A stretch of 32,000 nucleotides of DNA from Candidatus Kuenenia stuttgartensis (GCF_900232105.1 NZ_LT934425.1:990001-1022000); one strand, 5' to 3'; shown: positions 5,120 to 24,578, counted from the stretch's first letter. Notes: generated from the sequence alone by a model not told the origin. Made by a program: numbers and translations.

Positions 5120-5236
5120 TTCGGCATCTCCTTATGAAAAATAGAAAAAATAGGTCCAACTCAGCCTCGTCGGGATAAGTATCCTTGAGAACTTCTATCT
5201 TATGCAATAACTCCATTGTCAATCCCTCCTTCTGAA

Positions 5237-5480: not shown

Positions 5481-5541
5481 AAAAGATAGACAGGATCAGC
5501 CCTTGTAACTATTTAGCGTAAACATTACACGACTCCCCGCA

Positions 5542-5932: not shown

Positions 5933-6332
5933 TATGAGTTTATGCGTATAATGGGGCCATGTACTGCGGTAAAATTCCAATGCCCAAATCACAAAATCCC
6001 TGTTTGGAACCTGGAATTTATTTGTCATTTGTTCTGCTAATAGAAGGCTGAATTGAAAGTATAAAACGTTTGGTTCAGGTTACAAACCTGAACCCGCGAA
6101 TGTAGTTTCCATTGCCATTACGTTCCCAAACAGATACTTCACTATGTTCAGTACAAGGTTTGAGAACGAGTTGTGCTTCGGTAGTTTAATAGATTACGCT
6201 GAATAGTTACCAGCCCTTTATAATTCAAATGCCTAATACGAGAAACAACCCTGACAGGGATTTAAACCCTGTCAGGGTTAATACATTTTCAGGTTAAGGT
6301 TAATAAGTTAAAGATAAATAGAGCATATATAT

Positions 6333-6545
6333 TTACACAGAGACAGACATTTTCTCAGTTTTTTCGTCTACAGCACGAATAATCTGTTGGATTGTATCTG
6401 CTTCTGCCTCATCAAAGTATACTTCGCCACATTGCGCGCACACCCAGGCAGGAATAGTATCCAACATCAGATGATAGCTTTTACGATCAATGTGGAAAGG
6501 TGCAGTTCCCCGCTCCATTTCACCTTGACAATACATACATTTCAT
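6333..6545 (-). CDS. YgiT-type zinc-finger protein (MqsA-like antitoxin N-domain, no HTH)
   Basis: 70 aa: MKCMYCQGEMERGTAPFHIDRKSYHLMLDTIPAWVCAQCGEVYFDEAEADTIQ. It has two CxxC pairs in the YgiT layout and is coupled to the upstream DUF4258 ORF by a 1-nt overlap. Confidence 0.75.
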   Translation of the reverse strand: MKCMYCQGEMERGTAPFHIDRKSYHLMLDTIPAWVCAQCGEVYFDEAEADTIQQIIRAVDEKTEKMSVSV

Positions 6546-6796
6546 TATAGTTTCCTCCTTTTAAAATTCTCTTCCCATTCCTGCTCGCTTAGAAGGTAAG
6601 CAGTAATAACGGCCGGATATTCTGTTTTCGGTGAACAGACAACATGTATTGGACGATTGCTTTCTCCCTGACCAGGAATAAGACAACTATGGCCACGAAC
6701 ATCTTCCGGATAATCTTCTACCAGTTCTCCATTTCCGATAGCAAGGCAAACTTCAGCCATGCTTATCATTCTATCAGGACGTGACATTTGTCTCAC
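6545..6796 (-). CDS. DUF4258-family putative toxin (start uncertain)
   Basis: ...HAVRQMSRPDRMISMAEVCLAIGNGELVEDYPEDVRGHSCLIPGQGESNRPIHVVCSP fits the DUF4258 pattern. The track start is a GTG. The same frame stays open upstream to about 6869 (YIYEYSESCRQSAEKRILVLPHAV...) without an ATG. Confidence 0.65.
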   Translation of the reverse strand: MRQMSRPDRMISMAEVCLAIGNGELVEDYPEDVRGHSCLIPGQGESNRPIHVVCSPKTEYPAVITAYLLSEQEWEENFKRRKL

Positions 6797-6867
6797 AGCA
6801 TGAGGAAGAACTAAAATCCTCTTTTCTGCACTTTGCCTGCAAGACTCAGAATATTCATAAATATATT

Positions 6868-7112
6868 AAAAGTATTTGGGCTCAGACCTTGAATATAGAA
6901 AACAAAATTCAGCCCACATCTTTTTAAGTATTCTTTGTAATTATTTTTGCCACGAAGGGACTAAGACACAAACGGGTAAATTCCAAATAACAAATCCCAA
7001 AAATCAAATAACAGACAACATCCAATTTAGTAATTACTGCACAACAAAGCCTGCCTTCATGGAAATAGTGTACGCAAAGAAAAGCAAATTAAAAACATAT
7101 TTAGCCACAAAT
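6868..7112. repeat. Repeat family A, copy 3 (full length)
   Basis: Near-identical to 5237-5480. It is followed by a further repeat module at 7113-7180 (tccgtacgataaccttcggttccctacagggcaggcacggataaacacagataaaaaaa) that recurs at 9703-9760. Confidence 0.9.
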
Positions 7113-7211
7113 TAAATCCGTACGATAACCTTCGGTTCCCTACAGGGCAGGCACGGATAAACACAGATAAAAAAACGAATCCCAATTTCTCCAGGATATA
7201 TTTAACTTCGG

Positions 7212-7655
7212 CTACTTTTTTAACGGATTAAAAACCCTGGCGCCAATATACTCTGCAACCTTGCAAAGGTTTTCATCCGCAGAGACAAAAAGCCAGGCAC
7301 TTTCAGAAACCAAACTAAAACATCCGAGATGTAATGCGTCCAATGTTCTAAGCCCATGTTCCTTGCCGTGTCTTTTTAACAAGTCTTCTGCCTCTTGAAC
7401 AATTGCATGACTTAAGGGTTCGATGTTGAAACGAGTGAGTTCTGCTTCAAATCCGTCAATTGCTTCAGCTAACGACTTTTCATTTATTTCTTTACCTCTA
7501 AACCTTCTATGTAAAACACTGATAAACTCTAGTGTTGCCAATTCCAAAATCCAGGGTTCGTTCTCTTGCGAATTTAACAGGTCGGTAATCGCTTCCGTGC
7601 CCTCTTCATTATGGAAGAATTTTGCAAGCGCCGAGGTATCAAAGAATAGAATCAT
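7212..7655 (-). CDS. PIN-domain toxin (VapC-like)
   Basis: 147 aa: MILFFDTSALAKFFHNEEG...LRTLDALHLGCFSL...FVSADENL. It has the conserved acidic residues of PIN domains and a 4-nt overlap with the upstream small ORF. Confidence 0.85.
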   Translation of the reverse strand: MILFFDTSALAKFFHNEEGTEAITDLLNSQENEPWILELATLEFISVLHRRFRGKEINEKSLAEAIDGFEAELTRFNIEPLSHAIVQEAEDLLKRHGKEHGLRTLDALHLGCFSLVSESAWLFVSADENLCKVAEYIGARVFNPLKK

Positions 7656-7867
7656 ATCCTATCTTCTCTCTGTAATTTTATATCCTCACTCAACGACCCT
7701 TTACATTGCTTTAAAGCCTTCCTAACCCTCAGATAGGCTGGTTCCCCCTCTCGGCTCTCACGTTTTCTATCCCTCGCTTTCAAGGAAAGTATCATTTCAT
7801 ACACTGTTATCAATTCAGAAGGGCTCAATGTTTCAAGTTCTTTTATTGTCTGTTCTTTTATTTTCAT
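7652..7867 (-). CDS. Putative antitoxin partner of VapC-like toxin
   Basis: A 71-aa ORF directly upstream of and overlapping the PIN gene, with a charged C-terminal tail ...KGSLSEDIKLQREDRI. The family is not recognised, so the call rests on position and size. Confidence 0.55.
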   Translation of the reverse strand: MKIKEQTIKELETLSPSELITVYEMILSLKARDRKRESREGEPAYLRVRKALKQCKGSLSEDIKLQREDRI

Positions 7868-8291: not shown

Positions 8292-9596
8292 TTATGCTCT
8301 TTTTACCTTATCAGAATGATTCGTATGATTCTTAATTAAATTTCTCGTATCAACGATAAGCTTTGAATTTTTTAGAATGAAATCAGGGTCGTAATCAGCA
8401 TGCTCTGTTGCGATAACAACCGCATCATATTTAGCAAGCGTCTCGGCATGTAAAGGGACTGAACTATTATTAAAGGAATATTTCCTCATTTTCGGGAGAA
8501 CCGGTATATACGGGTCGTTGTAGTCAACATGGGCGTCTTTCTCCCCAAGAAGCTCCATGATCTTCAGCGAGGGAGATTCACGGGTATCGTCTATATCTTT
8601 TTTATATGAAAGCCCCAGTATTAAAATCTTTGCGCCCTTAATGCTTTTCCCTTTCTCATTAAGCGCCTCAACAGTCTTTTGAACCACATAATAAGGCATG
8701 TTGGTATTTATTTCCCCTGCAAGCTCTATAAACCGGGTGGAAAACTCGTATTCCCGCGCCTTCCAGGTCAAATAAAAGGGATCGATAGGTATGCAATGTC
8801 CACCAAGACCCGGGCCGGGATAAAATGCCTGAAATCCAAAGGGTTTTGTCTTCGCCGCCTCTATGACCTCCCACACATCAATCCCCATCCTGTCAAAAAG
8901 CATCTTCAGTTCGTTCACCATCGCAATATTCACTGATCTATAGATATTCTCAAGTAGTTTTGTGGCCTCCGCAACTCTTGTTGAAGAAACCGGGACGGTC
9001 TTTACCACTACCGAATCATAAAGGGCTTGTGCAACGGTAAGACAATTATTCGTATAACCGCCAACCACTTTCGGGATGGTCCTTGTTGAAAAACCCTTAT
9101 TATTCGGGTCTTCCCGCTCCGGTGAAAACGCCAGATAAAAGTCCTCGCCAGCTTTTAACCCTGACTCCTCAAGCATGGGTCTCATGTCCTCATCCGTAGT
9201 CCCTGGATACGTAGTAGATTCAAGGACAATAAGCTGACCCTTGCGAAGATTTCTGGCAATGGTCTTTGTTGTGTTAAAGACATATGACATATCAGGCTCA
9301 CGGTATTTGTTCAGAGGCGTCGGAACACATATGATGATGCAGTCCATAGCTGACAACATCGAAAAATCCGTGGTGGGAGTGAAACGCGATCCGGCGTCCG
9401 TGATACGTGAACTATCAATATGTTTTATGTAGCTTTTGCCCTGGCTCAATAATGTTACTTTTTCTTGATCAATGTCGAAGCCGGTAACCTGAAACCCAGC
9501 CTTACAGAATTCAATGACCAGCGGCAATCCAACATAGCCGAGGCCGATGATACCAATATGCGACTTCTTTGATTTAATTTTTTCGATTAGTTCCAT
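8292..9596 (-). CDS. Nucleotide-sugar dehydrogenase (UDP-GlcNAc/UDP-ManNAc 6-dehydrogenase family)
   Basis: 434 aa, with an N-terminal Rossmann motif IGIIGLGYVGLPL, ...GGHCIPIDP (catalytic Cys region) and the C-terminal UDP-binding domain LGLSYKKDIDDTRESP. Confidence 0.9.
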   Translation of the reverse strand: MELIEKIKSKKSHIGIIGLGYVGLPLVIEFCKAGFQVTGFDIDQEKVTLLSQGKSYIKHIDSSRITDAGSRFTPTTDFSMLSAMDCIIICVPTPLNKYREPDMSYVFNTTKTIARNLRKGQLIVLESTTYPGTTDEDMRPMLEESGLKAGEDFYLAFSPEREDPNNKGFSTRTIPKVVGGYTNNCLTVAQALYDSVVVKTVPVSSTRVAEATKLLENIYRSVNIAMVNELKMLFDRMGIDVWEVIEAAKTKPFGFQAFYPGPGLGGHCIPIDPFYLTWKAREYEFSTRFIELAGEINTNMPYYVVQKTVEALNEKGKSIKGAKILILGLSYKKDIDDTRESPSLKIMELLGEKDAHVDYNDPYIPVLPKMRKYSFNNSSVPLHAETLAKYDAVVIATEHADYDPDFILKNSKLIVDTRNLIKNHTNHSDKVKRA

Positions 9597-9759
9597 AGTT
9601 GTTTTGTTTTAGCCTCGCGATTACAAAAGATATATTTTTAACCCGTGAATTTTGCCACGAAGACACTTAGACACAAAGGGGTTTTGCCACAGATGGAGAC
9701 CCCGTACGATATAACCTTTGGTTCCATACAGGGCGGGCAAGGATAAATACAAATAAAAA

Positions 9760-10053
9760 ATAACATTTTAGCTTTTTGAAAAATTCACAGGATAGAAAAA
9801 ATACCATGTAGCCCCGGCAGGGGCGGTCTGTTTGTAGCACAATAAAATTCAATAGAATAAATAGCTCCGTAGGAGCGGCATGTCCGTATTCAGGCAGACC
9901 TGTTTATATGGATTTACAAAAGACAGATCACTCCTAATTGCAGAGACAGGTTTCAAACCTGTCTCTACGATCTGTTATAATATCCTATTTTACCACAAAC
10001 AGGCTGCTCCTACGGAGCTTATTAGTACATTTTTCAAAAAACTAAAGTGTTAC
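9760..10053. repeat. Family B MITE copy B2
   Basis: ataacattttagctttttgaaaaa (9760-9783) pairs with tttttcaaaaaactaaagtgttac (10030-10053). The cargo is related to B1 (gtagccccggcaggggcggtctgtttgtag...tagctccgtaggagc...) plus the hairpin gagacaggtttcaaacctgtctc. ataaaaaa(taac) is repeated at both flanks. Confidence 0.75.
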
Positions 10054-10425
10054 GATAAAAAATAACTCACAAATCCCAAATAATTTCTCTATGGATCATA
10101 TGCATTCACTTACATACCTGCCAGCAGGCAGGCCGCGCCTGCTGATTTAATTTACAGGGACTTCGTCCCTCTCAGTTACATGAATAACTTCTGTAACCAG
10201 TTAACGAATACAGCATAAACCTGGCAGTCAGAGATCAGAGGTCAGCAGTCGGTAGTCGGCAATTTGCCGGGCGCCGAGTGCTACGGCATCTTAGAAAATT
10301 CCAGGGATCTATGCCATACGCAGCCAAAAAGAGTTTAACCACAAAGGGATTGGCCAGGCCTTTGGCTGAAACCAAATTCGAAATACTAATATCGAAATAC
10401 GAAACAAATTCAAATGACAAAAAAC

Positions 10426-10575
10426 ATAACACTTTAGTTTTTTGAAAAATTCCAACAGTAACGATGTTTGCCGCATAGTGTAGGGGCGAAGCATTTGCTG
10501 TAATTGCCATAAATGCGTTCATACTCAAATGAGCAAATGCTTCGCCCCTACTTTTTCAAAAAAGTAGAGTATTAC
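10426..10575. repeat. Family B MITE copy B3 (inverted relative to B4/B6; right TIR degenerate)
   Basis: ataacactttagttttttgaaaaa...gtaggggcgaagcatttgct-gtaattgccataaatgcgttcatactcaaatg-agcaaatgcttcgcccctac...tttttcaaaaaagtagagtattac. Confidence 0.7.
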
Positions 10576-12207: not shown

Positions 12208-14760
12208 TCATCTATAATAATACGCGCCGGTTTCTGTATAATTCATGATGGTGCCAAGAAGTTTTGTTTTTGTTTCTTTTATAATAGCTGTTGCCTGATC
12301 AACCTCATCAACGGTGACATGCCCTGATTTGGCCACCAGGATCACACCATCTGCCAATGGCAGTAATGGAGTAACACTGCCCGTTGCGTTTAACAAGGGC
12401 GGTGTATCCACAAGCACCACGTCATACCGTTGTTTCAACAGGTTCAGGAATTTTTCAAAAAGCTGAAAATAGGTCCTTCCTTCCGGAAAAATCTCCCCGG
12501 TTCCAAATCGCAGGAGTGAGATATTTGAGCCATTTAACGTTGTCACGTTCGATAATATCTCACGTTCCAATAATCTGCTTCCCCCCAAACGCCCCAAACG
12601 GTTGATCACCGGAGTAAAGTCCTCCTGGAAAAATACCCTTTTATCTTCGTACGTTTCTATACTTCCCGGTTTGAATGAATACGTTCCCTCTTTCCAACTG
12701 AATAGTTTCTGGAGATGTTCTTCTATCTGCAATTTGATAGGACCTTTTAATTGTTCCTGATTTATATAGCCCGCATTGATGAGGATATATCCCAACGGCA
12801 ATTTCGTGCGCTGGTTTCGTTCCATGGCGTCTTTCAACTGGGTCTCATTGATAAAACCCCCTCGCAGGAGCATCGTTCCCAATCTGTTGGTAAATGGAGT
12901 GTCCTCATTGTCAATATGAAAAAGGTTGCCATTTTCAAAGATGGTGGTAATCTTTTGTAATTCGTTGGAAACAGTCAGCTCTCCGCTCAATTTTTTTAAT
13001 GAAATAATGGAAAAAAGATCGTCCACACTGCAATTGCACAAAGAACCATCCTGTATTTGCCATGACCGGATTTTTTCCATTGCATTTGACATTCCGGCAT
13101 TTTCATTATCTTTTAATCCAAACAAATTGCTTAAACTCGTGTTGTACACGTCCGCATCCACCATTATCACGCGTAACCCACCCTTTGCCATACTTACTGC
13201 CAATTTTGTAATAACCGTGGTCTTACCCTCCCCCGGCGTGGCGCTTCCTACCATCATGGCCTGCCCGCTCATTCCTGTCTGCATAAAAGGCAACCGGTTG
13301 ATAATACAATCGGAATTGGTGTGATAATAATAACCGCCTTTCTGATTCTTCTGCCCCGGAGATTTTCCGTTGCCGGATAAAGCCAGCACCCCCTCTTTCT
13401 TTAATGATTTCATATACGGTATCGTGCCGAGAACCGGCATACTCGTACACTGGACAATTTCTTCCTGAGTTTTGACCGTGTTGTCCATATATTCACGGAA
13501 AAATACAAGGCCTGTTCCAAATGTTAAGCCTACCACGACCGATAGAAGGACGTTTAATTTCTTTCTTGGTTTTGATGGAAATAGAGGAGCTTCCGCTTTA
13601 TCAACAACACGGATTGTGTCCTTCTTCATGTTTCCTGTTAAATTAATCTCCTTTGCCTGATTAATCAGGATATCGTAAATCGCCTGATCACTCATTGCCT
13701 CCAGATGTAAAATATCGTAATTTATTGCTCCTCCCGCCTTGACCAAAGACATTTGTTCCTGGATATCCTGCATTTTTGGGTTTGTACTTTCAAAGGCGAT
13801 GATACTGTCCAGTTCTCTCTTAATTGACGAACAGACCTTCTTCACCTCTTCAATGATTTCCTGCTCAAGCCCCTTTATGCTTGCATTTGCTTCTATCATC
13901 CTGGGATGATTTGGCCCGTACTTTTTAGTGTTTGCCAATACCGATTCTTTAAGGCTGCACAGTTGTTTGTAAAGTTCATCAATAACTTTATTTTCTTTTA
14001 TTTCGGGAAACAAGAATATACTTTCATCGTCAAAAGAAAAGGATCGAAGTTTTTCATATTTATATTGAAATGCCGCCTTCTGCGAATCACCTACTTTAAA
14101 CTTCTGCCCTTGAATCTGTGATTTCAGCCAATCGAGCGCCTGCTGTGATGACATACGTTGTATCTGGCTACTCCTCTCTATAAAAGCATGGGCGTGGGCA
14201 TTGGCTACGCGTGCGGATGTTTCCGGGGATTTGTTTGAAAAGCTGATATTTACCAGATGTGTTTCACGAATGGGTTCTATCTGAAGATTTTTTAAATACC
14301 AGTCGATCATTTCAGATGTCACCTCTGCGTCTGACAAAGGCAAGGAACTTTCGGTATCGTTCTCATCGGGAGCTGTCTCTGGTGAACCTGTTTTCTCAGG
14401 CGCATCACGATAAAATACTTCACTGAGTTCGTTCTCCTGAATAACTTGTTTCGCAAGACTCCTGCTGGCAAGTAGTTTGTATTGTGTCTGGTAGTACTCC
14501 TTATCCGTGGCGTCTATCCGCATAACATCAGCCATTTCTTCCATAAAAGACTTTTTGTTATCGATGATAATCTGTGTTGTCGCTTTGTAGACAGGCGTTA
14601 CAGTAAACGACAGATAGGTAACGACGGAAACCACTGCAGTGAAGAAAATTACCAATATCCATATATGTTTTCTTATGATGTTAAGATAATCCGTAAGATG
14701 AACCTCGCGATTAAGCGGTTTCCTACCAAATGTATTGTTAAATTCGTTATTTTGGTTCAA
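12208..14760 (-). CDS. Polysaccharide co-polymerase / tyrosine autokinase (Wzc/GumC-like BY-kinase) with inserted DUF4388 + MshEN-like module
   Basis: 850 aa with a TTG start preceded by aaggagag. It has an N-terminal TM, a long coiled region and a second TM. Kinase motifs are Walker A SATPGEGKTT, Walker A' VIMVDADV and Walker B YDVVLVDTPP, with a C-terminal Tyr cluster GAYYYR. About 250 aa separate A' from B (see findings). Confidence 0.85.
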   Translation of the reverse strand: MNQNNEFNNTFGRKPLNREVHLTDYLNIIRKHIWILVIFFTAVVSVVTYLSFTVTPVYKATTQIIIDNKKSFMEEMADVMRIDATDKEYYQTQYKLLASRSLAKQVIQENELSEVFYRDAPEKTGSPETAPDENDTESSLPLSDAEVTSEMIDWYLKNLQIEPIRETHLVNISFSNKSPETSARVANAHAHAFIERSSQIQRMSSQQALDWLKSQIQGQKFKVGDSQKAAFQYKYEKLRSFSFDDESIFLFPEIKENKVIDELYKQLCSLKESVLANTKKYGPNHPRMIEANASIKGLEQEIIEEVKKVCSSIKRELDSIIAFESTNPKMQDIQEQMSLVKAGGAINYDILHLEAMSDQAIYDILINQAKEINLTGNMKKDTIRVVDKAEAPLFPSKPRKKLNVLLSVVVGLTFGTGLVFFREYMDNTVKTQEEIVQCTSMPVLGTIPYMKSLKKEGVLALSGNGKSPGQKNQKGGYYYHTNSDCIINRLPFMQTGMSGQAMMVGSATPGEGKTTVITKLAVSMAKGGLRVIMVDADVYNTSLSNLFGLKDNENAGMSNAMEKIRSWQIQDGSLCNCSVDDLFSIISLKKLSGELTVSNELQKITTIFENGNLFHIDNEDTPFTNRLGTMLLRGGFINETQLKDAMERNQRTKLPLGYILINAGYINQEQLKGPIKLQIEEHLQKLFSWKEGTYSFKPGSIETYEDKRVFFQEDFTPVINRLGRLGGSRLLEREILSNVTTLNGSNISLLRFGTGEIFPEGRTYFQLFEKFLNLLKQRYDVVLVDTPPLLNATGSVTPLLPLADGVILVAKSGHVTVDEVDQATAIIKETKTKLLGTIMNYTETGAYYYR

Positions 14761-14951: not shown

Positions 14952-15472
14952 CTCCTTTGTATTTTTTGGCAAAATATTTAATGGTTAAATCCGAAATACT
15001 AAATACAAATCCCCCCCCTGCACCCTCGCCAGCGGGGGACATTCTCCCCCTTTGTAGGGGGCAAGGGGGAGGATTTTAGAATATGTTTCATATTTTCATG
15101 CTTCGCGCTTGCTTGGTGGGAGCATTCCTGATTTTTTGTAACAGTTTAGATTTTTGGAAAAACAAAAATGCTCGTTCCCAAGCTCCGGCTTGGGAACGTA
15201 ATTGCGTTGGAAGCTCTAGCTTCCATTTAGCCGGCAAGCGAAGCTTCATGTATTATTCGATTCAAAAGAGGTTTCCAAATATCTTGGGTAACATACTGAA
15301 AAGCCTCCAAGCTGACATCCTGGGTTCATTCCCTTTTCCATTCGAAGCTGGAGCTTCTCAAACAATCCCGTTCCCAAGCCGGAGCTTGGGAACGAGCGGT
15401 TTTTTTACCCACCCATTATTCCCCTCTTGGGAAGGGAATAATGAGTGGGTTGACGGCATAATGAAAAACCTT

Positions 15473-15510
15473 GAAACACTTTAGTCTTTTTCAAAAAACT
15501 AACGTGTTAC
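15473..15510. repeat. Family B minimal copy B5 (two TIRs back to back, 38 nt hairpin)
   Basis: gaaacactttagtctttttcaaaaaactaacgtgttac consists of the TIRs only, with no cargo. It lies 26 nt downstream of the wza-like stop. Confidence 0.75.
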
Positions 15511-15535: not shown

Positions 15536-16105
15536 TTAAAAATACCTTACAGGCACTCTGATAATATCGTTTGGCTTTACCAGTGCATCAAGTTTTGCTT
15601 TATACTCCTCTTCTTTTCCATCTTTCGTCCTCACTACGATTACGCGGCGAGGAGATGCTTTTTCCGTTACCCCACCCGCCTGCGCAATTGCCTGGCGGAC
15701 GGTCATACTGTTTTTCCAGTAGTATTCACCGGGGGTTGTTACTTCCCCAACCACATACACTTTTTTACTCCGATACTTTTTTACCCTTATCGTTACTTGC
15801 GGAGAGACAAAATATCCTCCCTCCAATAATTTCTTCTCCATAAGTATTTCCAGATCAAAGACTGACAGGCCGTCGGCATCCACCTTGCCAATTAAGGGAA
15901 AGGTAAAGGCTCCGTTTTGTGATACTTCAACCATTCTGTCCATGTCTTCGTTGTCCCACACACGGATATCAAGGATATCTTCAGGCCCGACCACATATTC
16001 ATTATTTGAAATGTTGTCGGCTGAGAAGGCAAAGGATGTCGTGCACAGTAATCCTATAAAAATGCATATTATTTGTAATGTAGTTTTCGACTGTTTTTTT
16101 CTCAT
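15536..16105 (-). CDS. Polysaccharide export protein (Wza-like; Poly_export + SLBB domains)
   Basis: VGPEDILDIRVWDNEDM...FTFPLIGKVDADGLSVFDLE...YVVGEVTTPGEYYW...MTVRQAIAQAGGVT...IIRVP fits the family. I prefer the ATG at 16105 (MRKKQSKTTLQIICIFIGLLCTTSFAFS signal peptide, preceded by aaaggag) over the track start at 16147. Confidence 0.85.
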   Translation of the reverse strand: MRKKQSKTTLQIICIFIGLLCTTSFAFSADNISNNEYVVGPEDILDIRVWDNEDMDRMVEVSQNGAFTFPLIGKVDADGLSVFDLEILMEKKLLEGGYFVSPQVTIRVKKYRSKKVYVVGEVTTPGEYYWKNSMTVRQAIAQAGGVTEKASPRRVIVVRTKDGKEEEYKAKLDALVKPNDIIRVPVRYF

Positions 16106-16240
16106 ATCAGGCTCCTTTCTTTTAAGTAAATAGTTGTTATTAGTCATTATTCATTATTCATTGGTACCTTATCAGTAATTTCTTTGCTTTTTTGGGCAAA
16201 ATATTTAATTGTCCAGTCGGCAGTCGGCAAATTGCAGATT

Positions 16241-16311: not shown

Positions 16312-18138
16312 TTATTCAACCGTTACGCTCTTTGCCAGGTTTCTTGGTTTATCCACATTGCACCCTCGCATAACTGCCATGTGGTATGCCAGTAATTGAA
16401 GGGGGATGACAGAAAGCAAAGGGGTTAGTACTGCCGGTGCATCCGGGATATACACTACGTGATCCGCTTTCCCCTGTATCTGCTCGTCGCCTTCTGTCGC
16501 GATAGCAATGACCCTCCCTTTTCTTGACTTTACCTCTTCGATATTGTTGAGTATTTTCCCATATGTGGCGTCCTTTGTAGCAATAACTATTACCGGCATG
16601 TTTTCGTCTATTAACGCAATAGGCCCGTGTTTCATCTCCGCTGCCGGATATCCCTGCGCGTGAATATATGATATCTCCTTCAGCTTTAAAGCGCCTTCAA
16701 GCGCTACGGGATAGTTGAACCCACGCCCCAGATACAACGCATGATTTTTATCTTTGTAGGCATCCGCCATCTCACGGATTTCCTCTTCTCTATCAAGGAT
16801 CTTTTGAATCTTGCCTGGAATGGAATTAATTGCAGTTATCATTTCCGGAACTTTTGGGTCCGTCTTGTGCCTTAACAATAGTATATGGAGGGCAAACAAA
16901 TAGAAGGCGGCTACCTGAGCAGTAAATGCCTTTGTAGAGGCAACTCCGATTTCAGGGCCTATGTGTAGATATATGCCGGCATCGGCCTCTCTGGCAATGC
17001 TACTCCCGACGACATTACAAATAGCAAGTACTTTTGCACCTTTATTTTTTGCCTCCCTCATAGCCGCCAGGGTATCGGCGGTTTCTCCCGACTGGCTTAT
17101 TGCCATTACCAGTGTATCTTTTTCGATTATAGGATTGCGATATCTGAATTCAGAGGCATATTCAACTTCAACCGGTATTCGTGCAAGCTCTTCCAGCATG
17201 TATTCTCCTACCAGACCTGCATGCCATGATGTGCCGCAGGCAATGACCACAATGCGTTTAACTGCAAGAAGGTCTTTTTCACAATGGGAAAGTCCGCCCA
17301 GTTTTATAGGGGCTTTGCCACCATCTACCCTTCCCCTCATAAGATTTTGAAGCGCCTGCGGTTGTTCGTGAATCTCCTTCAGCATAAAGTGTTGGAAACC
17401 GGATTTTTCAATCATATCCATGTTCCAGAGCACTTCTTCGATCTTTTTCAACGACGTGATGTTTTCGATGGTCTTTGTCTCGTAGTTATCAGGGGTGATA
17501 ATCGCAACCTCAAGATCGTCCAGATAGATAACATTTCTCGTATGTTCCAGCGTAGCCGAGACGTCCGACGTGATGAAATATTCATTATCGCCGATTCCAA
17601 TAATCAATGGAGAACCTTTTCTCGCAGCCACTATTTTCCCCGGATCCTTCGTGGATATAACGGCAATGCCGTACGTTCCCTCAATCATCTTGACGGCGCT
17701 CATTACGGCTTCTTCCAGGTTGTTGGTTAGATTTTCTTCAATTAAATGCGCCAGCACTTCTGTATCTGTCTGACTTTTAAATATGTGCCCTCTTTTTTCT
17801 AAATAAGAGGTTAAATAGTCGTAATTTTCAATAATGCCATTGTGCACAACAGCAATTTCACAACGGCAATCCATGTGTGGGTGCGCGTTTTCAACCGTAG
17901 GCGCACCATGGGTTGCCCATCTGGTATGGACAATACCCATATTTGCAATGATAGGATTCGTATTCAGTTTATGTTCAAGTTCGACAACCTCTCCTATGGC
18001 CTTCTCGTATCGCAATGTGCCGTTTTCAATACATGCGATACCGGAAGAATCGTATCCGCGATATTCGAGTCGTTTAATGCCATCCAAAAGCACCTTTCCG
18101 GCTTCTTTGTTTCCAATATATCCTACAATTCCACACAT
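16312..18138 (-). CDS. glmS: Glutamine--fructose-6-phosphate aminotransferase (isomerizing)
   Basis: 608 aa with the N-terminal nucleophile MCGIVGYIG, two SIS domains and the C-terminal ...LAKSVTVE, the canonical GlmS end. Confidence 0.97.
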   Translation of the reverse strand: MCGIVGYIGNKEAGKVLLDGIKRLEYRGYDSSGIACIENGTLRYEKAIGEVVELEHKLNTNPIIANMGIVHTRWATHGAPTVENAHPHMDCRCEIAVVHNGIIENYDYLTSYLEKRGHIFKSQTDTEVLAHLIEENLTNNLEEAVMSAVKMIEGTYGIAVISTKDPGKIVAARKGSPLIIGIGDNEYFITSDVSATLEHTRNVIYLDDLEVAIITPDNYETKTIENITSLKKIEEVLWNMDMIEKSGFQHFMLKEIHEQPQALQNLMRGRVDGGKAPIKLGGLSHCEKDLLAVKRIVVIACGTSWHAGLVGEYMLEELARIPVEVEYASEFRYRNPIIEKDTLVMAISQSGETADTLAAMREAKNKGAKVLAICNVVGSSIAREADAGIYLHIGPEIGVASTKAFTAQVAAFYLFALHILLLRHKTDPKVPEMITAINSIPGKIQKILDREEEIREMADAYKDKNHALYLGRGFNYPVALEGALKLKEISYIHAQGYPAAEMKHGPIALIDENMPVIVIATKDATYGKILNNIEEVKSRKGRVIAIATEGDEQIQGKADHVVYIPDAPAVLTPLLSVIPLQLLAYHMAVMRGCNVDKPRNLAKSVTVE

Positions 18139-18178: not shown

Positions 18179-18319
18179 TTAAAGACTCTTACTTGCCGGA
18201 ACTGTTTTTTGTGGAACCGGCAATAGTTGAAATATATCAACATTGCATTTCAAATTCGCCTGTTCAGATTTTACTACGGGTTTTTTGTATACTTTTTTTG
18301 TTTTTTTTGTTTTGTCCAT
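18179..18319 (-). CDS. Hypothetical 46-aa Lys-rich small ORF (not in the supplied track)
   Basis: Manual reverse translation gives MDKTKKTKKVYKKPVVKSEQANLKCNVDIFQLLPVPQKTVPASKSL*. The ATG lies 24 nt after the PqqD-like stop, on the same strand. There is no clear SD sequence, the region is A-rich, and coding status is unproven. Confidence 0.25.
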   Translation of the reverse strand: MDKTKKTKKVYKKPVVKSEQANLKCNVDIFQLLPVPQKTVPASKSL

Positions 18320-18342: not shown

Positions 18343-18663
18343 TTATTTATAAACGATTAAGTTTTTAACAGAAAGGTCTTCCAGAAAACATAACACATCA
18401 AAACACGCAGCATTTGCATCCACCTGATACTCATTACATAGTTTTTCCGCTATTTCTCTGACCGTAAATACGCCATTACACATATTCCATATTTCAGCCC
18501 CTACATCATTCAGTTGATGAAGCCATTGGCCATCCTCAGAAAAAAGGACAGTATCACCACCTACCTTCCTCCAAAAGCACTTATTTTCGTTTCGGCAAGG
18601 AACCTTATTTTTATTGTCCAAAATGATGCGCATGTGTTTCGCCATAAGCCTTATTATCAACAA
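18343..18663 (-). CDS. PqqD-family protein (RRE-type peptide-binding domain)
   Basis: ...WRKVGGDTVLFSEDGQWLHQLNDVGAEIWNMCNGVFTVREIAEKLCNEYQVDANAACFDVLCFLEDLSVKNLIV fits the PqqD pattern (LN..a..iW...dG..tv.ei...l). The real start may be an internal Met. Confidence 0.75.
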   Translation of the reverse strand: MLIIRLMAKHMRIILDNKNKVPCRNENKCFWRKVGGDTVLFSEDGQWLHQLNDVGAEIWNMCNGVFTVREIAEKLCNEYQVDANAACFDVLCFLEDLSVKNLIVYK

Positions 18664-18677: not shown

Positions 18678-21509
18678 TTACCTCGTTTGTGAATACTGCG
18701 TGGTATCCGTTGTGCCGGCATATTCCAATTGAAAGATTTTGTTCCGGGCGTATTTAATATTCCTATACTTAATTTCATACACCGCAGTACAATCCACTAT
18801 ACTGCTTATTATTCTTAATTTTTCCGAGAAAAGGTTTTTATTATCAATACCGTTTAAATCACATGGATAGATATTGTTCATAAGGGCAACTGCAACCTCC
18901 TTGCCGCTTAATTTTTTAAATGAATTATTTGCATCCGTACCTAATAAAATAACTGCCTCTAACGGTGCAATCTTACTATTTTGTTTTGTAATCTCTGTTT
19001 TCACGGGAAACTGAGAAATGTAATATGAGCCTTTTTCTTCCGTAGCTACGATTAATTCATCCGAAAGGATTTCCGCCTCGTGAGTAAACAGGCTTGATAT
19101 AATCGTTTTATTATCGCCGGATTTCTCTACAAGAAGAAATCCTCTTCCATCCGTCACTACGCCTGCCGCAGGGATGAAAAAATCATTTGCACCCTTTCCG
19201 TTGTGTATGCCTTTCTTAAAAAATCCCTCATAAATGCAACGACACATATACTCCACAACAGATAGCTTCCCGGCAGTGGGGATAAATACCCTTTTTTCCG
19301 CTTCAGAGGAATTTATACAATAATATTTTTCCTGCTTATAATTTATTTCTTCCCCATCATTATACAATCTGTTGCTCTCCTGATATCCGAATATAAACCG
19401 GCAGTCATTTTGACCATTCATTTCAGAGAAATGGAAATATTTTTGCGCTTCTTCCTCGAGTTCTTTGTTCAAAAATGAAAAGGCTAAACACATTTTCCCA
19501 ATGTTCAATGTTAATCCGCCATTATTCCCGACAGGCCTTTGGTATCCACGCCGTTCAAGAGGCAATACATATTTTTTCAGCATGTCCCTGACTTTTTCAT
19601 AATGATCCATTGCGGAAAGATTCTTCAGGAGTGTTTCAAACTCACTGAGTATTTTATTTATTTCGTGCAAAGAGAACATCCCGCTATTCTTCGCAAAAAA
19701 TACCTTCTCATGCCTGCTTGCGGTTGTGCCTTCTTCTGCGGTAAGTATTTCTTCGTAAAGCTTTTCACCAGGCCTCAAACCGGTAATCTTTATGTCTATG
19801 TCCTGATAGGGTTTCAAGCCATGGATCTTTATTAAGTCTTCCGCTAACGCCAAAAGCTTTACAGGTTCTCCCATGTCCAGGACAAGGATATCTCCGCCTT
19901 TCCCTAAAATTGCCGCCTGAAGAACCAGTGACACCGCCTCCGGAATCGTCATGAAATATCTTTCGACATCTTTATGGGTCACAGTAAGGGGCCCTTCCTC
20001 CTTTAGCTGCTGCAAAAACAACGGTAAAACACTCCCGCGGCTGCCTAAGACATTTCCAAATCGCACCGATAAAAACTCTGTATTTGACATCCCTTCAAAC
20101 GCCCTGCAAATATGTTCCGCCATCCTCTTTGTCGCGCCCATAATACTAGTCGGCCTAACCGCTTTATCCGTAGAGATTAAAACAAACTTTTCCACCTTAT
20201 TCTCCATCGACACCTTTGCTACTTTGTACGTCCCAAACATATTCACTTTGACCGCTTCTTTGGAGTTATATTCCATCATAGGCACATGTTTGTAAGCAGC
20301 GGCATGGAAGACAATCTGCGGTTTCATATGTTTAAAAACACTGGTAACGGACTCTTCGTCCCTTATATCGCCGGCAATAAATAATACTTTTTGCAACATT
20401 TGCGAATTGACGCGCTGGTTATGAAGCAGATGCGGAAATCGTTTTTCCAAATGAAGTTTCAAAGAATGTAATTCTGTTTCATCTGTATCGAAAAGTATTA
20501 CTTTTTCGGGATGAAAGGAACAAACCTGCACAGCTATTTCAGAACCGATAGAGCCGCCGGCGCCGGTAATAAGAACAACCTTGTTATGTATAAACCGTTC
20601 TATCCCTTTATGGTCAATCTCTACCGCCTGCCTGCCTAAAAGATCTTCAATACTGATATTTTCAAGATTGTGAATATTTATTGCAGGTTCACAGTTATCG
20701 TATATGCGTGGAATAATCTTTATCTCCACGTCATACCTGTTTGCGATATTGTATAATCTCCTCAATGATTTGTAGTTTAATGATGGAATGGCAACAACCA
20801 TTGCCTTGACCCTCTTTTCTTTTATAATATCTTCCAATATGTCGGTTTTGCCAAACACCGGAATACCGTGTATGCTTTTTCCCACTTTGCCAACATCGTC
20901 ATCAAGCAATCCAACGGGGCAATAATCTTTATAACCCCCTTCTTTCAGATCCCTGAGGACCATGCTTCCTGTGTTCCCGGCGCCGATGATAATGGTTCTC
21001 TTCCCATGCTTTGCGTTGATTCTTCCGTAAATGTATTTTGAAAATACTCTTTTTGAAATTCTTAATCCGCAAAATAATGTGAGAGAAATCAGGCATTCAA
21101 TAAAAATGATACTTCGAGGAAAACCCTGAACTGGAAATAAAGAATAAAGGCCGGAAATATTTATAATGTTATTTGATATATATGGATTCCAGATTATCGC
21201 CCCAAGAACAGTTAATGCTACAAACTGTGATAATGTGATATAGATGAAATCAGGGATGCTTACATATTGCCATGTGATTTTATATATTTTAAAAAGAGCA
21301 AGCATGCCCATTTTGACAAGCAAAAACAGGGGCAATGCCCTCAAAATCATCCATCTATATTGCGGGGAAATCTCAAAATCAAAGCGAAAAAGAAAGGATA
21401 CAAAAAGGGAAAATGCAATGATAACTACATCACACGCACAAAAGAACATCGTACGCTTAAAATAGGTGGGATAGAATAATTTATTTATAGCTCTTCCTGC
21501 TGTCACCAA
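18678..21509 (-). CDS. Membrane-bound CapD/PglF/WbpM-type NDP-sugar 4,6-dehydratase fused to a ~295-aa HprK-related-kinase-like C-terminal domain
   Basis: 943 aa. It has N-terminal TM helices, IIGAGNTGS and TGAGGSIGSE Rossmann motifs, and AAAYKHVPMMEYN. After ...LKKYVLPLERRGY (about 19545) the frame continues with ...FIPAAGVVTDGRGFLLVEKSGDNKTIISSLFTHEAEILSDELIVA... Confidence 0.85.
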   Translation of the reverse strand: MVTAGRAINKLFYPTYFKRTMFFCACDVVIIAFSLFVSFLFRFDFEISPQYRWMILRALPLFLLVKMGMLALFKIYKITWQYVSIPDFIYITLSQFVALTVLGAIIWNPYISNNIINISGLYSLFPVQGFPRSIIFIECLISLTLFCGLRISKRVFSKYIYGRINAKHGKRTIIIGAGNTGSMVLRDLKEGGYKDYCPVGLLDDDVGKVGKSIHGIPVFGKTDILEDIIKEKRVKAMVVAIPSLNYKSLRRLYNIANRYDVEIKIIPRIYDNCEPAINIHNLENISIEDLLGRQAVEIDHKGIERFIHNKVVLITGAGGSIGSEIAVQVCSFHPEKVILFDTDETELHSLKLHLEKRFPHLLHNQRVNSQMLQKVLFIAGDIRDEESVTSVFKHMKPQIVFHAAAYKHVPMMEYNSKEAVKVNMFGTYKVAKVSMENKVEKFVLISTDKAVRPTSIMGATKRMAEHICRAFEGMSNTEFLSVRFGNVLGSRGSVLPLFLQQLKEEGPLTVTHKDVERYFMTIPEAVSLVLQAAILGKGGDILVLDMGEPVKLLALAEDLIKIHGLKPYQDIDIKITGLRPGEKLYEEILTAEEGTTASRHEKVFFAKNSGMFSLHEINKILSEFETLLKNLSAMDHYEKVRDMLKKYVLPLERRGYQRPVGNNGGLTLNIGKMCLAFSFLNKELEEEAQKYFHFSEMNGQNDCRFIFGYQESNRLYNDGEEINYKQEKYYCINSSEAEKRVFIPTAGKLSVVEYMCRCIYEGFFKKGIHNGKGANDFFIPAAGVVTDGRGFLLVEKSGDNKTIISSLFTHEAEILSDELIVATEEKGSYYISQFPVKTEITKQNSKIAPLEAVILLGTDANNSFKKLSGKEVAVALMNNIYPCDLNGIDNKNLFSEKLRIISSIVDCTAVYEIKYRNIKYARNKIFQLEYAGTTDTTQYSQTR

Positions 21510-21653
21510 TGTGAGATTTCCTTTTTAAGTTTTAAGTAGACTCTTTTTATTATGATTGAGCAGATTTTTAAAACATAACCCAGACAATCCGGAGACACCG
21601 CCTACTTTTGGTCTCACAACACTTTTTGAAAATATCCTTAAAAACAAAAAACC

Positions 21654-21784
21654 GTAACACTTTAGTTTTTTGAAAAAGTAGTGGCGATACATTTGCCCGT
21701 CTGGGTATGAACGCATTTATGACAATTTACAGCAAATGCTTAGCCACTACTTTGCAATTATTAGAATTTTTCAAAAAAACTAAT
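21654..21784. repeat. Family B MITE copy B6 (right TIR truncated)
   Basis: gtaacactttagttttttgaaaaa-gtagtggcgatacatttgcc...agcaaatgcttagccactac...-tttttcaaaaaaactaa has the same cargo as B4. Confidence 0.75.
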
Positions 21785-22566: not shown

Positions 22567-24578
22567 CTAGCGTGAGTTTATCACAAAATAAGGCATGAAG
22601 CAACGTAACATAAATACAGTCAATGCGTTAAGCACAACATCAATTGTATACACTGAGTCCTTGAAGTTTCAGCCGATGTTTGTGGAAATCCATAATGCCT
22701 AACGCATTCATCAACAGAGATTCCTTGTCGGACATTTCTTCCAATTTGTAGGTAGCCTTAACTCTCCCTCTGGCCTTTGTTTCTTCAAGCATAGCAGAAA
22801 GCCTTATATTATTAAGGGTGTCTAACAGGGTATCTAACGTTCCACTAAATTGTGCGTGCGCTTTTGCCTGATACCACACAATCGCCGCCATTAGGTATCC
22901 GAGGACGCAAATAAAAAAATGCACCCTGATTTTCTGATCCGTCCAGTGAAATTGCGGTTTTAAAGCAAGGTGATAGGGGTTCTTGAGATTTCTAAAGGCA
23001 TGTTCAATTTTTGATTGCCCATAGTAGGCTTTTATAATGTCCGCGGTATCCCAATCGTGATGGTCTGTCATAAGAATCCTGAACCCCAGTTCCCCTTCTA
23101 TTTCTTCGAGCTTTTTCTGGTCGATTGAAAAATTCAATTGAAACTTGCCTTCAGATACCTCTTTTAACGACCAATCGATAACATCCTTCGCAAATTGACA
23201 TTTCACTACACTTCTTATCGTATCCTCCAGACCCTCTTTGTCCCGCATCTTTCCCTTTGGATTACACAGATGCTGCTGTAAGAGCTTTAACTGATGTTCT
23301 GCCTTTTCCAGAGACTGAGACATTCCCCTTAATTGCCCAACCTTTAATTTCTCGGAAATAAATACGACAACGGTTCTTTCCTGCCCCCAAATAACCCGTT
23401 TGTCATGGTACACCTGTATCTTACTGCCGTCAACGTCATATTCCCTGAAATTACACATGGCATCCCCTACCAACTGCTTGTGATGATACGGTGTAAGCGC
23501 TCCAACGTAATGCAATGCCAATCTCTCTACAATAGCCATATTGTCCATGGAATTGTTTCCACGATCAAAAACAATAGTGTGCTTTTTGCTGTCGAAACCT
23601 AATCCGGTCATCCTGTCTTTTATCGTCTCAAGAACCGCGCTGAACACCTTTGCATCCGCCATGTTCCCCTGATAGGTATGGTGAAACAACGGTATCATGT
23701 CGTTACGTGTAACGACCATCGCCAACCCGACCTGCCTGAGATCGTATCGCTTTTGTTTGTTTTTCCCCCGCCGGGCAATAGTGCATCGCAGATTAGTTGT
23801 GTCGATATACGTGAAAAAATTGGTTGTATCAAAAAACAGTGTGTCGCTTTGAAGGTTGTATGTTTTAAATGTCTTTTCAATTAATTCGCGCTCGATTTCT
23901 GCAATGGATTCTTCAGGAAGTGCATCCATCAAATCCCAGAAATGCTGACTGTCTATTTTACTCAAGCTGTGTCTGAGTAAGTATTCGGCAGTAGTCGTCT
24001 TTGCCCAATCCCACCATCCTCTTTTGCTGGTAGGCACACACACTCTCCCCACGGCACCCAACAAGAGGGTACTTCCGGCGGTCAGATTATTTCGAACAGG
24101 TTTTTTAGCACAATACTGCCGTGGCGACTTTATATATTTATTAATCACGGAAGGGACGTCCAGGGCATTGGCCACACTTAGCAATGCGGCTACCGCGCCA
24201 TGTGAATAAGATTTGAGCCGTAATTTTTCGGTAAGACCTTGCAGTTGTTTTAATAAATCGTCTGCCTTGCCAAGATAGGCCAGGACGATGGGCCTGGGCT
24301 TGCCGTTAACGCGCCGCGATTCGACAATATACCAATATTTATAACCTCTGGAGTTTTTAGATTGAATGGTAGCCATGGCTATTAGTTGTTAGTGTATACG
24401 TAATAGATTAATACTCCGTGTATAATAGTATATACAGGCATATAATGCAATATAAATATAGTATTATTCAGTGTATACATAATTTTTTAGACAAAAAAAG
24501 TCGCAACCCGATACAAATCATTGGATTGCAACTTGATGTCTTTGTCTTACACCTTATTTCGTGATAAACTCACGCTAG
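22567..24578 (-). mobile_element. Insertion sequence, IS1634/IS4-type (about 2.0 kb)
   Basis: Terminal inverted repeats are ctagcgtgagtttatcacaaaataagg (22567-) and the reverse complement of ccttatttcgtgataaactcacgctag (-24578), matching 26/27. The flanks rejoin to the uninterrupted family C copy at 11555-11575 (ggtggaccggatttctcc). Confidence 0.85.
22640..24376 (-). CDS. IS1634-family (IS4 superfamily) DDE transposase
   Basis: 578 aa. The N-terminus MATIQSKNSRGYKYWYIVESRRVNGKPRPIVLAYLGK is typical of IS1634. Also present are VFDRGNNSMDN and YYGQSKIEHAFRNLKNP (E-x6-K). Confidence 0.9.
   Translation of the reverse strand: MATIQSKNSRGYKYWYIVESRRVNGKPRPIVLAYLGKADDLLKQLQGLTEKLRLKSYSHGAVAALLSVANALDVPSVINKYIKSPRQYCAKKPVRNNLTAGSTLLLGAVGRVCVPTSKRGWWDWAKTTTAEYLLRHSLSKIDSQHFWDLMDALPEESIAEIERELIEKTFKTYNLQSDTLFFDTTNFFTYIDTTNLRCTIARRGKNKQKRYDLRQVGLAMVVTRNDMIPLFHHTYQGNMADAKVFSAVLETIKDRMTGLGFDSKKHTIVFDRGNNSMDNMAIVERLALHYVGALTPYHHKQLVGDAMCNFREYDVDGSKIQVYHDKRVIWGQERTVVVFISEKLKVGQLRGMSQSLEKAEHQLKLLQQHLCNPKGKMRDKEGLEDTIRSVVKCQFAKDVIDWSLKEVSEGKFQLNFSIDQKKLEEIEGELGFRILMTDHHDWDTADIIKAYYGQSKIEHAFRNLKNPYHLALKPQFHWTDQKIRVHFFICVLGYLMAAIVWYQAKAHAQFSGTLDTLLDTLNNIRLSAMLEETKARGRVKATYKLEEMSDKESLLMNALGIMDFHKHRLKLQGLSVYN

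Follow-up and report, generated by a model that had tools for sequence, protein, structure and literature searches.

A predicted pseudokinase domain related to ScmC and HPr kinases, fused to a PglF/CapD-type sugar dehydratase and kept under purifying selection in Candidatus Kuenenia stuttgartiensis

What does a kinase-like domain do once it has been joined to a sugar dehydratase and has lost residues that are invariant in its relatives? The question is raised by a gene in a 32,000-nucleotide (nt) stretch of the genome of the anammox bacterium Candidatus Kuenenia stuttgartiensis (NZ_LT934425.1:990001-1022000), hereafter the window, which encodes on its minus strand, at 18678..21509, a single protein of 943 amino acids (aa). 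We find that this gene specifies a membrane-anchored PglF/CapD-type UDP-HexNAc 4,6-dehydratase with a C-terminal domain of about 280 aa. Judged by its relatives and its predicted structure, this domain, the tail, is a P-loop kinase-like domain of the fold shared by HPr kinases (HprK) and phosphoenolpyruvate carboxykinases (PEPCK). It is predicted to be a pseudokinase, since the invariant histidine of its family and the glycine before the P-loop lysine are lost, and it is maintained by selection.

The open reading frame (ORF) runs for 943 codons without a stop, and the last 283 of these would be open by chance with P ~1e-10 at the given base composition (0/20000 shuffles were open). The protein begins with hydrophobic membrane segments at aa ~20-160 (21030-21450, read from the translation by eye), followed by a Rossmann-like CoA_binding_3 domain at aa 162-267 (20709..21026; Pfam PF13727, E 1.9e-8), the catalytic Polysacc_synt_2 domain, a short-chain dehydrogenase/reductase (SDR) domain of PglF type, at aa 312-607 (19689..20576; E 3.4e-112), and the two-lobed tail at aa 666-943 (18681..19514), all on the minus strand. 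The dehydratase scores 374.9 bits against the Polysacc_synt_2 model (PF02719), whose cut-off is 20.2. Its closest solved homolog, Campylobacter jejuni PglF/WlaL (PDB 5BJU, E 5.5e-80), aligns with query residues 284-622; TGAGGSIG and STDKAVRPTSIMGATK are conserved, the catalytic block STDK...MGATK is kept (STDKAVRPT-IMG-TKR), and every column of ITGAGGSIGSE and ISTDKAVRPTSIMGATKR matches, covering the NAD-binding TGxxGxxG and the catalytic T-D-K and M...K. The original prediction, made from the sequence alone, had read the first 650 or so residues as a complete CapD-type dehydratase running on without a stop into a further domain, and both points are borne out, the peptide strings that it quoted being present in the translation. 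In these 650 residues the protein has the same architecture (anchor, CoA_binding_3, SDR) and the same aligned catalytic residues as the membrane-bound UDP-GlcNAc 4,6-dehydratases PglF, CapD and WbpM, and the dehydratase family itself is ordinary and already known. The difference lies beyond them: matches to the solved PglF-type homologs stop at or before query residue 622, none of those found by sequence search of the PDB reaching further, whereas the window protein carries the additional tail, which by itself has no match among PDB sequences.

The same 942-943-aa protein constitutes a 45-member database cluster (including CAJ73944.1, QII10964.1 and SOH03446.1), to which two closed Ca. Kuenenia stuttgartiensis genomes (4.33 and 4.41 Mb) contribute, and the frame is open in 45/45 members. 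In public records the only names given to these Kuenenia proteins are 'polysaccharide biosynthesis protein' and 'putative UDP-glucose 4-epimerase', and the tail is unannotated. Further fused orthologs are encoded by Kuenenia sp. Bin_40 (locus L006), whose tail is 94% identical to that of the window, by Kuenenia sp. SOET01 (L015), by a Brocadiaceae metagenome-assembled genome (MAG; L003), where the frame is still open at 39% identity, and by Brocadia sp. WS118 (L007). The frame from CapD into the tail is thus kept in five fused lineages, and the linker sequences differ.

To which family does the tail belong? An exhaustive phmmer search over 1.84 billion representatives recovered 100 relatives, most of them free-standing proteins of 260-300 aa; a word-indexed homolog search returned a single fragment, and pattern scans of genomes and of metagenomes found 2 loci each. 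One of the relatives, P0009 (4060 aa), matches the tail in six separate stretches, the best corresponding to tail residues 198-249, and may be a repeat protein holding a fragment of the domain. The window tail has no Pfam match at E<=1, and its sole NCBIfam match is to HprK_rel_A at the P-loop (10.9 bits, E 0.18). Its relatives are more telling. Among 72 that were aligned, 61 match ScmC (TIGR04249), 54 HprK_rel_B, 48 HprK_rel_A, 9 PEPCK and 6 HPr(Ser) kinase, all of these matches lying below the curated cut-offs. Precomputed PF27840 'ScmC' annotations are attached to P0003-P0007, P0010, P0011, P0143-P0150 and the Brocadia and SOET01 fusion tails, and phmmer finds the window tail homologous to PF27840-annotated proteins at E 1e-56 to 1e-10. 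An AlphaFold2 (AF2) model built from a multiple sequence alignment has two lobes, a beta-rich N-lobe and a P-loop lobe, with a mean predicted local distance difference test score (pLDDT) of 85.2 and a predicted template-modelling score (pTM) of 0.82; a single-sequence model (pLDDT 34) was set aside. In Foldseek searches of the PDB this model resembles ATP-dependent PEPCKs (E 4e-7, TM ~0.5 across both lobes) and HPr kinase/phosphorylases (1knx, 2.5e-5; 3tqf, 3e-5), and the tail-family profile aligns with HprK structures 1jb1, 2qmh and 1ko7 across 54-64 residues, far past the P-loop.

Collectively these comparisons place the tail in an uncharacterised branch nearest ScmC and the HprK-related kinases A and B. 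The closest curated family is ScmC, SynChlorMet cassette protein C (TIGR04249, PF27840), whose members have about 270-290 aa and adjoin a PqqD homolog and radical S-adenosylmethionine (rSAM)/SPASM maturases; the window domain differs in being fused to a dehydratase, in its degenerate P-loop, in having no rSAM gene beside it, and in scoring far under the equivalog cut-off of 125 bits, the window tail itself giving no match to the model and its relatives 26-42 bits. With HprK and the HprK-related kinases A and B (TIGR04352, TIGR04355) the tail family has in common the PEPCK-like P-loop fold and the motif H-A-x-G ... G-x-S-G-x-G-K-[ST] ... D-[DE]. It departs from them in an N-lobe that the Foldseek alignments bring nearer to the PEPCK N-domain than clearly to that of HprK, in the lost Walker A and histidine, and in reaching no model at its cut-off: 10.9 bits for the window tail against 200 for the HprK-related kinases, and best relatives at E 5.8e-9 and 1.8e-10, still under it. 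As for HPr kinase/phosphorylases proper (TIGR00679, Hpr_kinase_C), the tail matches neither the hidden Markov model (HMM) nor the Walker A sequence, and what it has of them is the predicted PEPCK-like P-loop fold; no HPr or phosphotransferase system (PTS) gene was noticed among the window ORFs scanned. The proposal of an HprK-like domain is therefore sustained as to fold and type by the structural comparison, and needs amending as to the closest curated family, which is ScmC and not HprK-related kinase A; the profile HMMs that had been suggested as a check gave the P-loop match alone for the window tail and sub-threshold matches for its relatives. PADLOC found no defence-system match for the tail or for the neighbouring PqqD protein. 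The searchable literature held nothing on SynChlorMet, on HprK-related kinases or on an HPr kinase combined with rSAM and a peptide recognition element, 'ScmC' occurring there as unrelated acronyms only.

The family consensus reads H-A-x-G ... G-x-G-[FY]-x-F-x-G-x-S-G-x-G-K-T-T ... [LN]-D-E, and in the 72 background sequences (tail numbering) His137 and Gly157 are conserved in 100%, Gly152 and Thr160 in 96%. In the window these are replaced by Pro, Asn, Glu and Ile, respectively. The Walker A, GxSGxGKT in the family, has become EKSGDNKT (aa 795-802, 19104..19127), both of its glycines being replaced, as had been noticed within 19101-19130 and is now measured against 72 relatives; Pro780 (19170..19172) stands where all 72 have the histidine of the HAxG motif. 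An S-D-E at aa 816-818 (19056..19064) is retained, with Asp174 invariant and Glu175 nearly so, and lies in the stretch matched to HprK 1jb1 (profile positions 129-182); it would correspond to the catalytic acidic pair of HprK. From these residues the tail of the window is predicted to be a pseudokinase. Degeneration is not a property of every fused protein: Kuenenia sequences have EKSGDSKT, EKSGDNKT or GKSGDNKT with Pro or Ser for His, and the Brocadiaceae MAG fusion has Arg for His and GIPGDVKN, whereas the histidine and GESGAGKT are intact in the fusions of Brocadia WS118 and Kuenenia sp. SOET01, so that the loss seen by the original prediction holds for the window and not for all its fused orthologs. 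Lys158, Ser-Gly, Asp174 (then Glu175) and Pro192 are kept throughout the fused lineages.

Has the domain simply been released from constraint? Comparison of the window with Bin_40 gives ratios of non-synonymous to synonymous change (dN/dS) of 0.137 over the whole gene; the dehydratase core stands at 0.071, the membrane/CoA part at 0.167, the tail at 0.172 and the PqqD gene that follows at 0.236. The tail differs by 22 synonymous and 16 non-synonymous changes, a synonymous excess with P=4e-7 against neutrality. Both the tail and PqqD are under purifying selection. Tajima's relative-rate test of the window tail against the intact fused SOET01 ortholog, with P0003 as outgroup, gives 35 against 34 unique changes, with a similar outcome for five other outgroups, and an accelerated evolution of the degenerate tail is thereby rejected. 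Given that dN/dS is well under 1 and that the rate is not raised, the domain is maintained and not decaying; change is confined to the catalytic positions, and the remaining domain is as constrained as in the active ortholog.

The history of the fusion was followed in a neighbour-joining tree of the tails (500 bootstraps), a simple distance phylogeny calculated from capped distances, the uncapped ones being saturated. One clade, supported at 100%, unites the degenerate tails of Kuenenia and of the Brocadiaceae MAG with the intact fused tail of SOET01. The WS118 fused tail lies outside it amid free-standing proteins, monophyly of all fused tails is found in 0/500 replicates, and the WS118 linker, about 70 aa longer, contains a duplicated CapD C-terminal helix; on these grounds fusion to CapD apparently arose twice independently. 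Within the clade SOET01 groups with the K. stuttgartiensis-type tails at 67%, in agreement with CapD-part identities of 81%, 71% and 70%, and because the SOET01 tail is intact, the active site was probably lost twice. Both degenerate lineages have retained PqqD and the peptide ORF while the rSAM gene between PqqD and the precursor is missing, and their replacement residues differ. The helical segment just mentioned (..LP.xEDYEIIRD.L..Y...ERR) is tandemly duplicated at L007 7745-10789, where it makes up the long linker of WS118 to the kinase domain, and at L016 14792-16897, where it ends an unfused CapD.

Which partners does the tail have? Directly after the fusion gene lies a PqqD-family peptide chaperone of the RiPP recognition element (RRE) type (18343..18663, minus strand), RiPP denoting ribosomally synthesised and post-translationally modified peptides. 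It scores 57.2 bits against PF05402 (cut-off 23.4, E 2e-15), and its orthologs adjoin ScmC-like genes in 9 other loci; the PqqD-like neighbour that had been pointed out is thus a conserved partner of the tail family. The start had been placed 15 nt downstream of the fusion, and while the adjacency is real, the first possible start is a TTG 14 nt past the fusion stop and homologs favour an ATG at 18633 or 18645. Of the NCBIfam models, those of the lasso and GeoRSP PqqD families match it best, all below cut-off, and no HPr-rel-A-specific PqqD model is among the matches.

Beginning 23 nt past the PqqD stop, a 46-aa precursor-like ORF, MDKTKKTKKVYKKPVVKSEQANLKCNVDIFQLLPVPQKTVPASKSL (18179..18319, minus strand), which the original prediction did not include, has a conserved leader and a diverged core; in strain CSTR1 it is the hypothetical protein KsCSTR_15870. 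The leader motif [KR]xYx[KR]Px[IV]xSE is common to the window, L003, L004, L010, L013, L015 (pep62) and both peptides of L016; in the second SOET01 peptide Lys replaces the leader Glu. An alignment of peptides from five lineages keeps Met1, Lys8, Tyr11, Pro14, Ser18, Glu19 and one Cys invariant. The window leader (..VYKKPVVKSEQANL) is near-identical to that of the rSAM-bearing Kuenenia locus (..VYRKPEISSEQANL), as KKVYKKPVVKSEQANL of the window is to KRVYRKPEISSEQANL of pep62, whereas the Cys-x4-Cys core of pep62, LCGPEGCGAGS, has become KCNVDIFQLL in the window. The family (46-68 aa) has Cys-containing cores of two types, CxPxxCGAGS and ACTCSGS, and the peptides gave no match to curated peptide families. 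Its other members are at L003 12837-13016, L004 12068-12250, L010 2345-2521, L013 10212-10418, L015 6753-6941 and 12138-12293, and L016 1051-1230 and 10860-11015. The YxKPx[IV] of the leader resembles the YxxPxL recognition motif of lasso peptides. The 207-nt spacer between PqqD and glmS is 97% identical in the window and Bin_40, above the conservation of synonymous sites in the flanking genes; a glmS ribozyme or other RNA was considered for it and rejected, there being no Rfam match even at E<=1.

The free-standing relatives provide the context from which such a trio may be understood. Intact free-standing members adjoin PqqD in all informative loci (L002, L004, L005, L010, L012, L013, L016), and in L010, L012 and L013 the stop and start codons of kinase and PqqD abut or overlap, which suggests a stoichiometric complex of the two proteins. 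An rSAM/SPASM maturase adjoins in most loci long enough to tell (L004, L005, L010, L013, L015, L016), and most loci of the cassette have a short precursor with the YxKPx[IV]xSE leader and a Cys-containing core. A SipW/archaeal-type signal peptidase I is encoded in L004, where it exceeds the TIGR02228 cut-off, and in L010, and L014 and L016 have likely homologs of it; NTP_transf_5 genes are present in L003, L004, L014 and L016. The neighbours are those of sugar metabolism and export: Bac_transf, Wza and Wzc-PatA_N in L004, DegT in L002, and Wzc, NTP_transf_5, Wzx, a polysaccharide deacetylase, DegT and an unfused 701-aa CapD in L016. In the Brocadiales, this cassette lies inside Wza/Wzc polysaccharide loci.

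An HprK-like kinase paired with PqqD had also brought lasso-peptide clusters to mind. The partnership with PqqD stands, but the system is a RiPP-like cassette of the rSAM/SPASM type: no ORF in the window or in any related locus has the size or the Pfam family of an Asn-synthase-like cyclase (C) or a transglutaminase-like B2 protease, and the lasso reading is rejected. The likeness to the lasso-peptide kinases PadeK, ThcoK and PsmK consists in a kinase and a PqqD-type RRE acting on a ribosomal precursor, and in a nucleotidyltransferase, since PsmN adds hexose to phosphate and the cassette likewise carries NTP_transf_5 genes. HprK-type lasso-peptide kinases phosphorylate precursor peptides (PMC8498205), and the hexoses on a phospho-Ser of pseudomycoidin are installed jointly by PsmK, of the HprK family, and PsmN, an 'uncharacterized nucleotidyltransferase' (PMC6993621). 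The differences are that the maturase of the cassette is rSAM/SPASM and its leader peptidase SipW-like, with no lasso cyclase or B2 protease, and that the window kinase is degenerate and fused to a sugar dehydratase.

What remains of the cassette in K. stuttgartiensis is seen by comparison with SOET01 (L014/L015). There the intact CapD-ScmC fusion (944 aa) is followed by PqqD, rSAM/SPASM, pep62, an ABC-2 permease and glmS, then by a free, intact ScmC-like gene, rSAM/SPASM, pep51, a SipW-like peptidase, Wza, Wzc-PatA_N and a Ugd-like gene, and finally by NTP_transf_5, GFO/hexapeptide, DegT, Wzy and glycosyltransferases. In the window the order is degenerate fusion, PqqD, 46-aa ORF, glmS, Wza, Wzc and Ugd-like; the rSAM, peptidase, ABC-2 and NTP_transf_5 genes are absent at the locus of the window lineage, and the place of the remaining sugar genes of SOET01 is taken by insertion sequence (IS) elements, an intron fragment, toxin-antitoxin modules and a PD-(D/E)XK gene. 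No rSAM gene was found in the 32-kb window, in L006 or in L003; one is present in the SOET01 locus and in the longer loci of free-standing members. The window is a reduced form of the SOET01 locus.

How, then, might a degenerate kinase serve a dehydratase? By analogy with the cassettes of its relatives, we propose, as an even call, that the tail has a docking or regulatory role without catalysis, through which the dehydratase is coupled to the complex of PqqD and peptide. In the parent cassette, if HprK-type lasso-peptide kinases are a guide, the PqqD RRE would bind the leader and present the precursor to maturase and kinase. The window tail would no longer phosphorylate anything; it would be a docking platform for the PqqD-peptide complex on the cytoplasmic face of the dehydratase, the leader being held by PqqD and PqqD by the former kinase, presumably as in the parent cassette. 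The presence of peptide could in this way be coupled to the first committed step of the amino-sugar pathway of the locus, by regulation or by scaffolding. In the fused orthologs with an intact P-loop (SOET01, WS118) the domain probably still phosphorylates the precursor, whose phosphate may then receive a sugar, as PsmK and PsmN would suggest. A non-catalytic role is favoured because the catalytic chemistry is gone in K. stuttgartiensis, and with PsmK/PsmN as a precedent for connecting a RiPP with sugar chemistry, it is understandable that fusion to a nucleotide-sugar dehydratase should have recurred. The proposal is further supported by the convergence of two lineages on a trio of degenerate fusion, PqqD and peptide, by a leader conserved across deeply diverged loci, and by the full cassette in the orthologous locus of another Kuenenia species.

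Several observations weigh against the docking proposal. Since Lys158, Ser-Gly, Thr159 and Asp-Glu are kept in the window, phosphoryl transfer or binding of nucleotide or phosphate may persist in residual form. The fused, intact domain of Brocadia WS118 has no PqqD or peptide within 10 kb, and the tail can therefore apparently do without either of them in its vicinity. Conservation does not extend to the peptide core; in the Bin_40 small ORF (L006 11202-11348) the last 8-10 residues differ owing to a 1-nt indel within a run of A, and over the first 38 codons all of the substitutions between the window and Bin_40 (3/3) are non-synonymous. Given the unconserved core and the indel, the peptide may act via its leader only or be dispensable. 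The independence of the two degenerations depends on the 67% bootstrap node and the CapD identities, and expression of KsCSTR_15850, _15860 and _15870 was sought in the K. stuttgartiensis CSTR1 papers and supplements and was not found there.

The retained residues lead directly to the alternative that survives best, namely that the tail has remained active as a kinase or phosphotransferase in spite of its deviant P-loop, acting on the neighbouring peptide or on a sugar or lipid intermediate, with pyrophosphate as a possible donor. The P-loop Lys, Ser-Gly, Thr and Asp-Glu pair would be expected of such an enzyme, as would strong purifying selection; fused orthologs with intact motifs imply that fusion as such is compatible with catalysis, and RiPP precursors are known substrates of HprK-type enzymes (PMC8498205). 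We consider it unlikely all the same: His137 and Gly157, invariant in 72/72 relatives, are both replaced, the replaced positions vary within the genus (E/G, N/S, P/S), which is unexpected of a working active site, and a second lineage has the same losses with other residues, the rSAM partner being missing in both.

Might the peptide instead be held at the dehydratase, bound to PqqD, as an acceptor of sugar, yielding a peptide-linked or phospho-linked glycan or a polymer primer? The persistent embedding of the cassette in nucleotide-sugar and export loci (DegT, CapD, Wza/Wzc, Wzx, Wzy), the NTP_transf_5 genes in the cassette, the hexoses that PsmK and PsmN place on a RiPP phospho-Ser (PMC6993621) and the twofold origin of the dehydratase fusion would all suit this suggestion, which we draw from analogy and hold to be distinctly unlikely for the window, whose kinase site is degenerate and whose 32 kb hold no NTP_transf_5 gene, so that the precedent chemistry cannot run from the window locus alone.

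More improbable still is that tail, PqqD and small ORF are the non-functional remnant of a decayed RiPP cassette, left in frame with CapD by chance. The losses fit decay well enough, since the rSAM, peptidase, ABC-2 and NTP_transf_5 genes are gone, active-site residues are lost, the peptide core is diverged and frameshifted in one genome, and IS elements, toxin-antitoxin modules and a fragment of an intron are strewn over the locus. A remnant should not, however, show the constraint on tail and PqqD described above (dN/dS 0.17 and 0.24), evolve no faster than its intact ortholog, keep its frame in 45/45 cluster members and in the distant Brocadiaceae ortholog, have a fold predicted with high confidence, or be followed by a spacer more conserved between species than the synonymous sites of its flanking genes. 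Finally, that the fusion is really two genes joined by a missed stop or frameshift is scarcely credible, because, for all the repeats and mobile elements that the window does hold, we found no support for such an artefact and the same ORF recurs in independent assemblies, two closed genomes and fused orthologs with different linkers.

The genes downstream of PqqD and its peptide are, on the same strand, glmS, encoding glucosamine-6-phosphate synthase (16312..18138; 82% identical in translation to the L015 gene and in the same position as in SOET01), a Wza-type polysaccharide export protein (15536..16147; Poly_export and SLBB), a Wzc-like Wzz/BY-kinase protein with DUF4388/PatA_N (12208..14760), and a UDP-sugar dehydrogenase of the UDPG_MGDP_dh family (8292..9596), which is the last recognisable gene of the polysaccharide locus and is 77% identical to the L014 gene that precedes NTP_transf_5. 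The Wzc-like protein is composed of Wzz, GNVR and a P-loop ATPase, with DUF4388/PatA_N inside the C-terminal ATPase region and a Tyr-rich end (..GAYYYR); this architecture is conserved across Brocadiales loci, recurring in L001, L004, L014 and L016.

Past the Ugd-like gene, a run of small genes on the minus strand (3456-7867) comprises PD-(D/E)XK_3, DUF3368 with UPF0175, an MqsA-like gene with DUF4258, and PIN with a small upstream ORF. It occupies the place of the NTP_transf_5, acetyltransferase, DegT, Wzy and glycosyltransferase genes of SOET01, and modules of the same kinds are interspersed in L003. Within it, 3919-4072 (minus strand) matches the group II intron family RF00029 of Rfam (47.9 bits, above gathering score) with no adjoining reverse-transcriptase ORF in the window; L001 has RVT_1/GIIM genes at the corresponding locus. 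Two DDE_Tnp_1 transposase genes flank the polysaccharide region, at 935-2818 (plus strand) and 22640-24376 (minus strand), and fit the reported plasticity of the Kuenenia genome (PMC7709395). A repeated intergenic element, common to Kuenenia and Brocadia loci, lies at about 9667-10530, 15083-15484 and 21525-21716 of the window, at L001 12958-13401 and in the upstream region of L009, its translations recurring as FFKKLKCY, FPSRSLGTS and SQAPAWER. In both Kuenenia SOET01 and Brocadia WS118 the CapD fusion is directly preceded by genes for a sigma-54 activator, which has a PocR sensor domain, and for a STAS or STAS-PilZ protein (L015 1-2053, L001 6743-9577); these proteins may be regulators of the locus; on its upstream side the window holds a transposase.

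What is already known of this system is the domain family as a computational kind. The fusion and its apparent recurrence, the precursor family, the pseudokinase state kept under selection and the residence of the cassette in anammox polysaccharide loci all appear to be undescribed; that the fusion was new had been surmised, and no paper on the family or the fusion was found in the searchable literature. ScmC and the HprK-related kinases are computationally defined families, for which this series of loci supplies a concrete and testable context: the precursors form a defined family, the RRE partner is conserved, and the peptide machinery has been joined, apparently twice independently, by 'Rosetta-stone' fusion to the enzyme of the first committed step in an amino-sugar pathway. 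With intact and degenerate fused orthologs side by side, a single genus offers a natural experiment in how a RiPP tailoring enzyme turns into a pseudoenzyme. Taken further, and as a tentative reading that we think rather unlikely to hold in all its parts, the polysaccharide loci of the Brocadiales may harbour an undescribed RiPP-like pathway, made up of a precursor with the YxKPx[IV]xSE leader, a PqqD RRE, an rSAM/SPASM maturase, a SipW-type peptidase, an ScmC/HprK-like kinase and NTP_transf_5. Its product would be a peptide that is phospho-glycosylated, glycan-linked or able to gate polysaccharide synthesis, the repeated kinase-PglF fusion would mark a direct physical hand-over between peptide and nucleotide-sugar chemistry, and the pseudokinase of K. 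stuttgartiensis would have made of it a peptide-sensing dehydratase. Extracellular polymers and surface glycans underlie anammox granulation and reactor performance. If Kuenenia and Brocadia do have a peptide-coupled step of control or modification in their main Wza/Wzc locus, it would offer a new way of acting on granulation.

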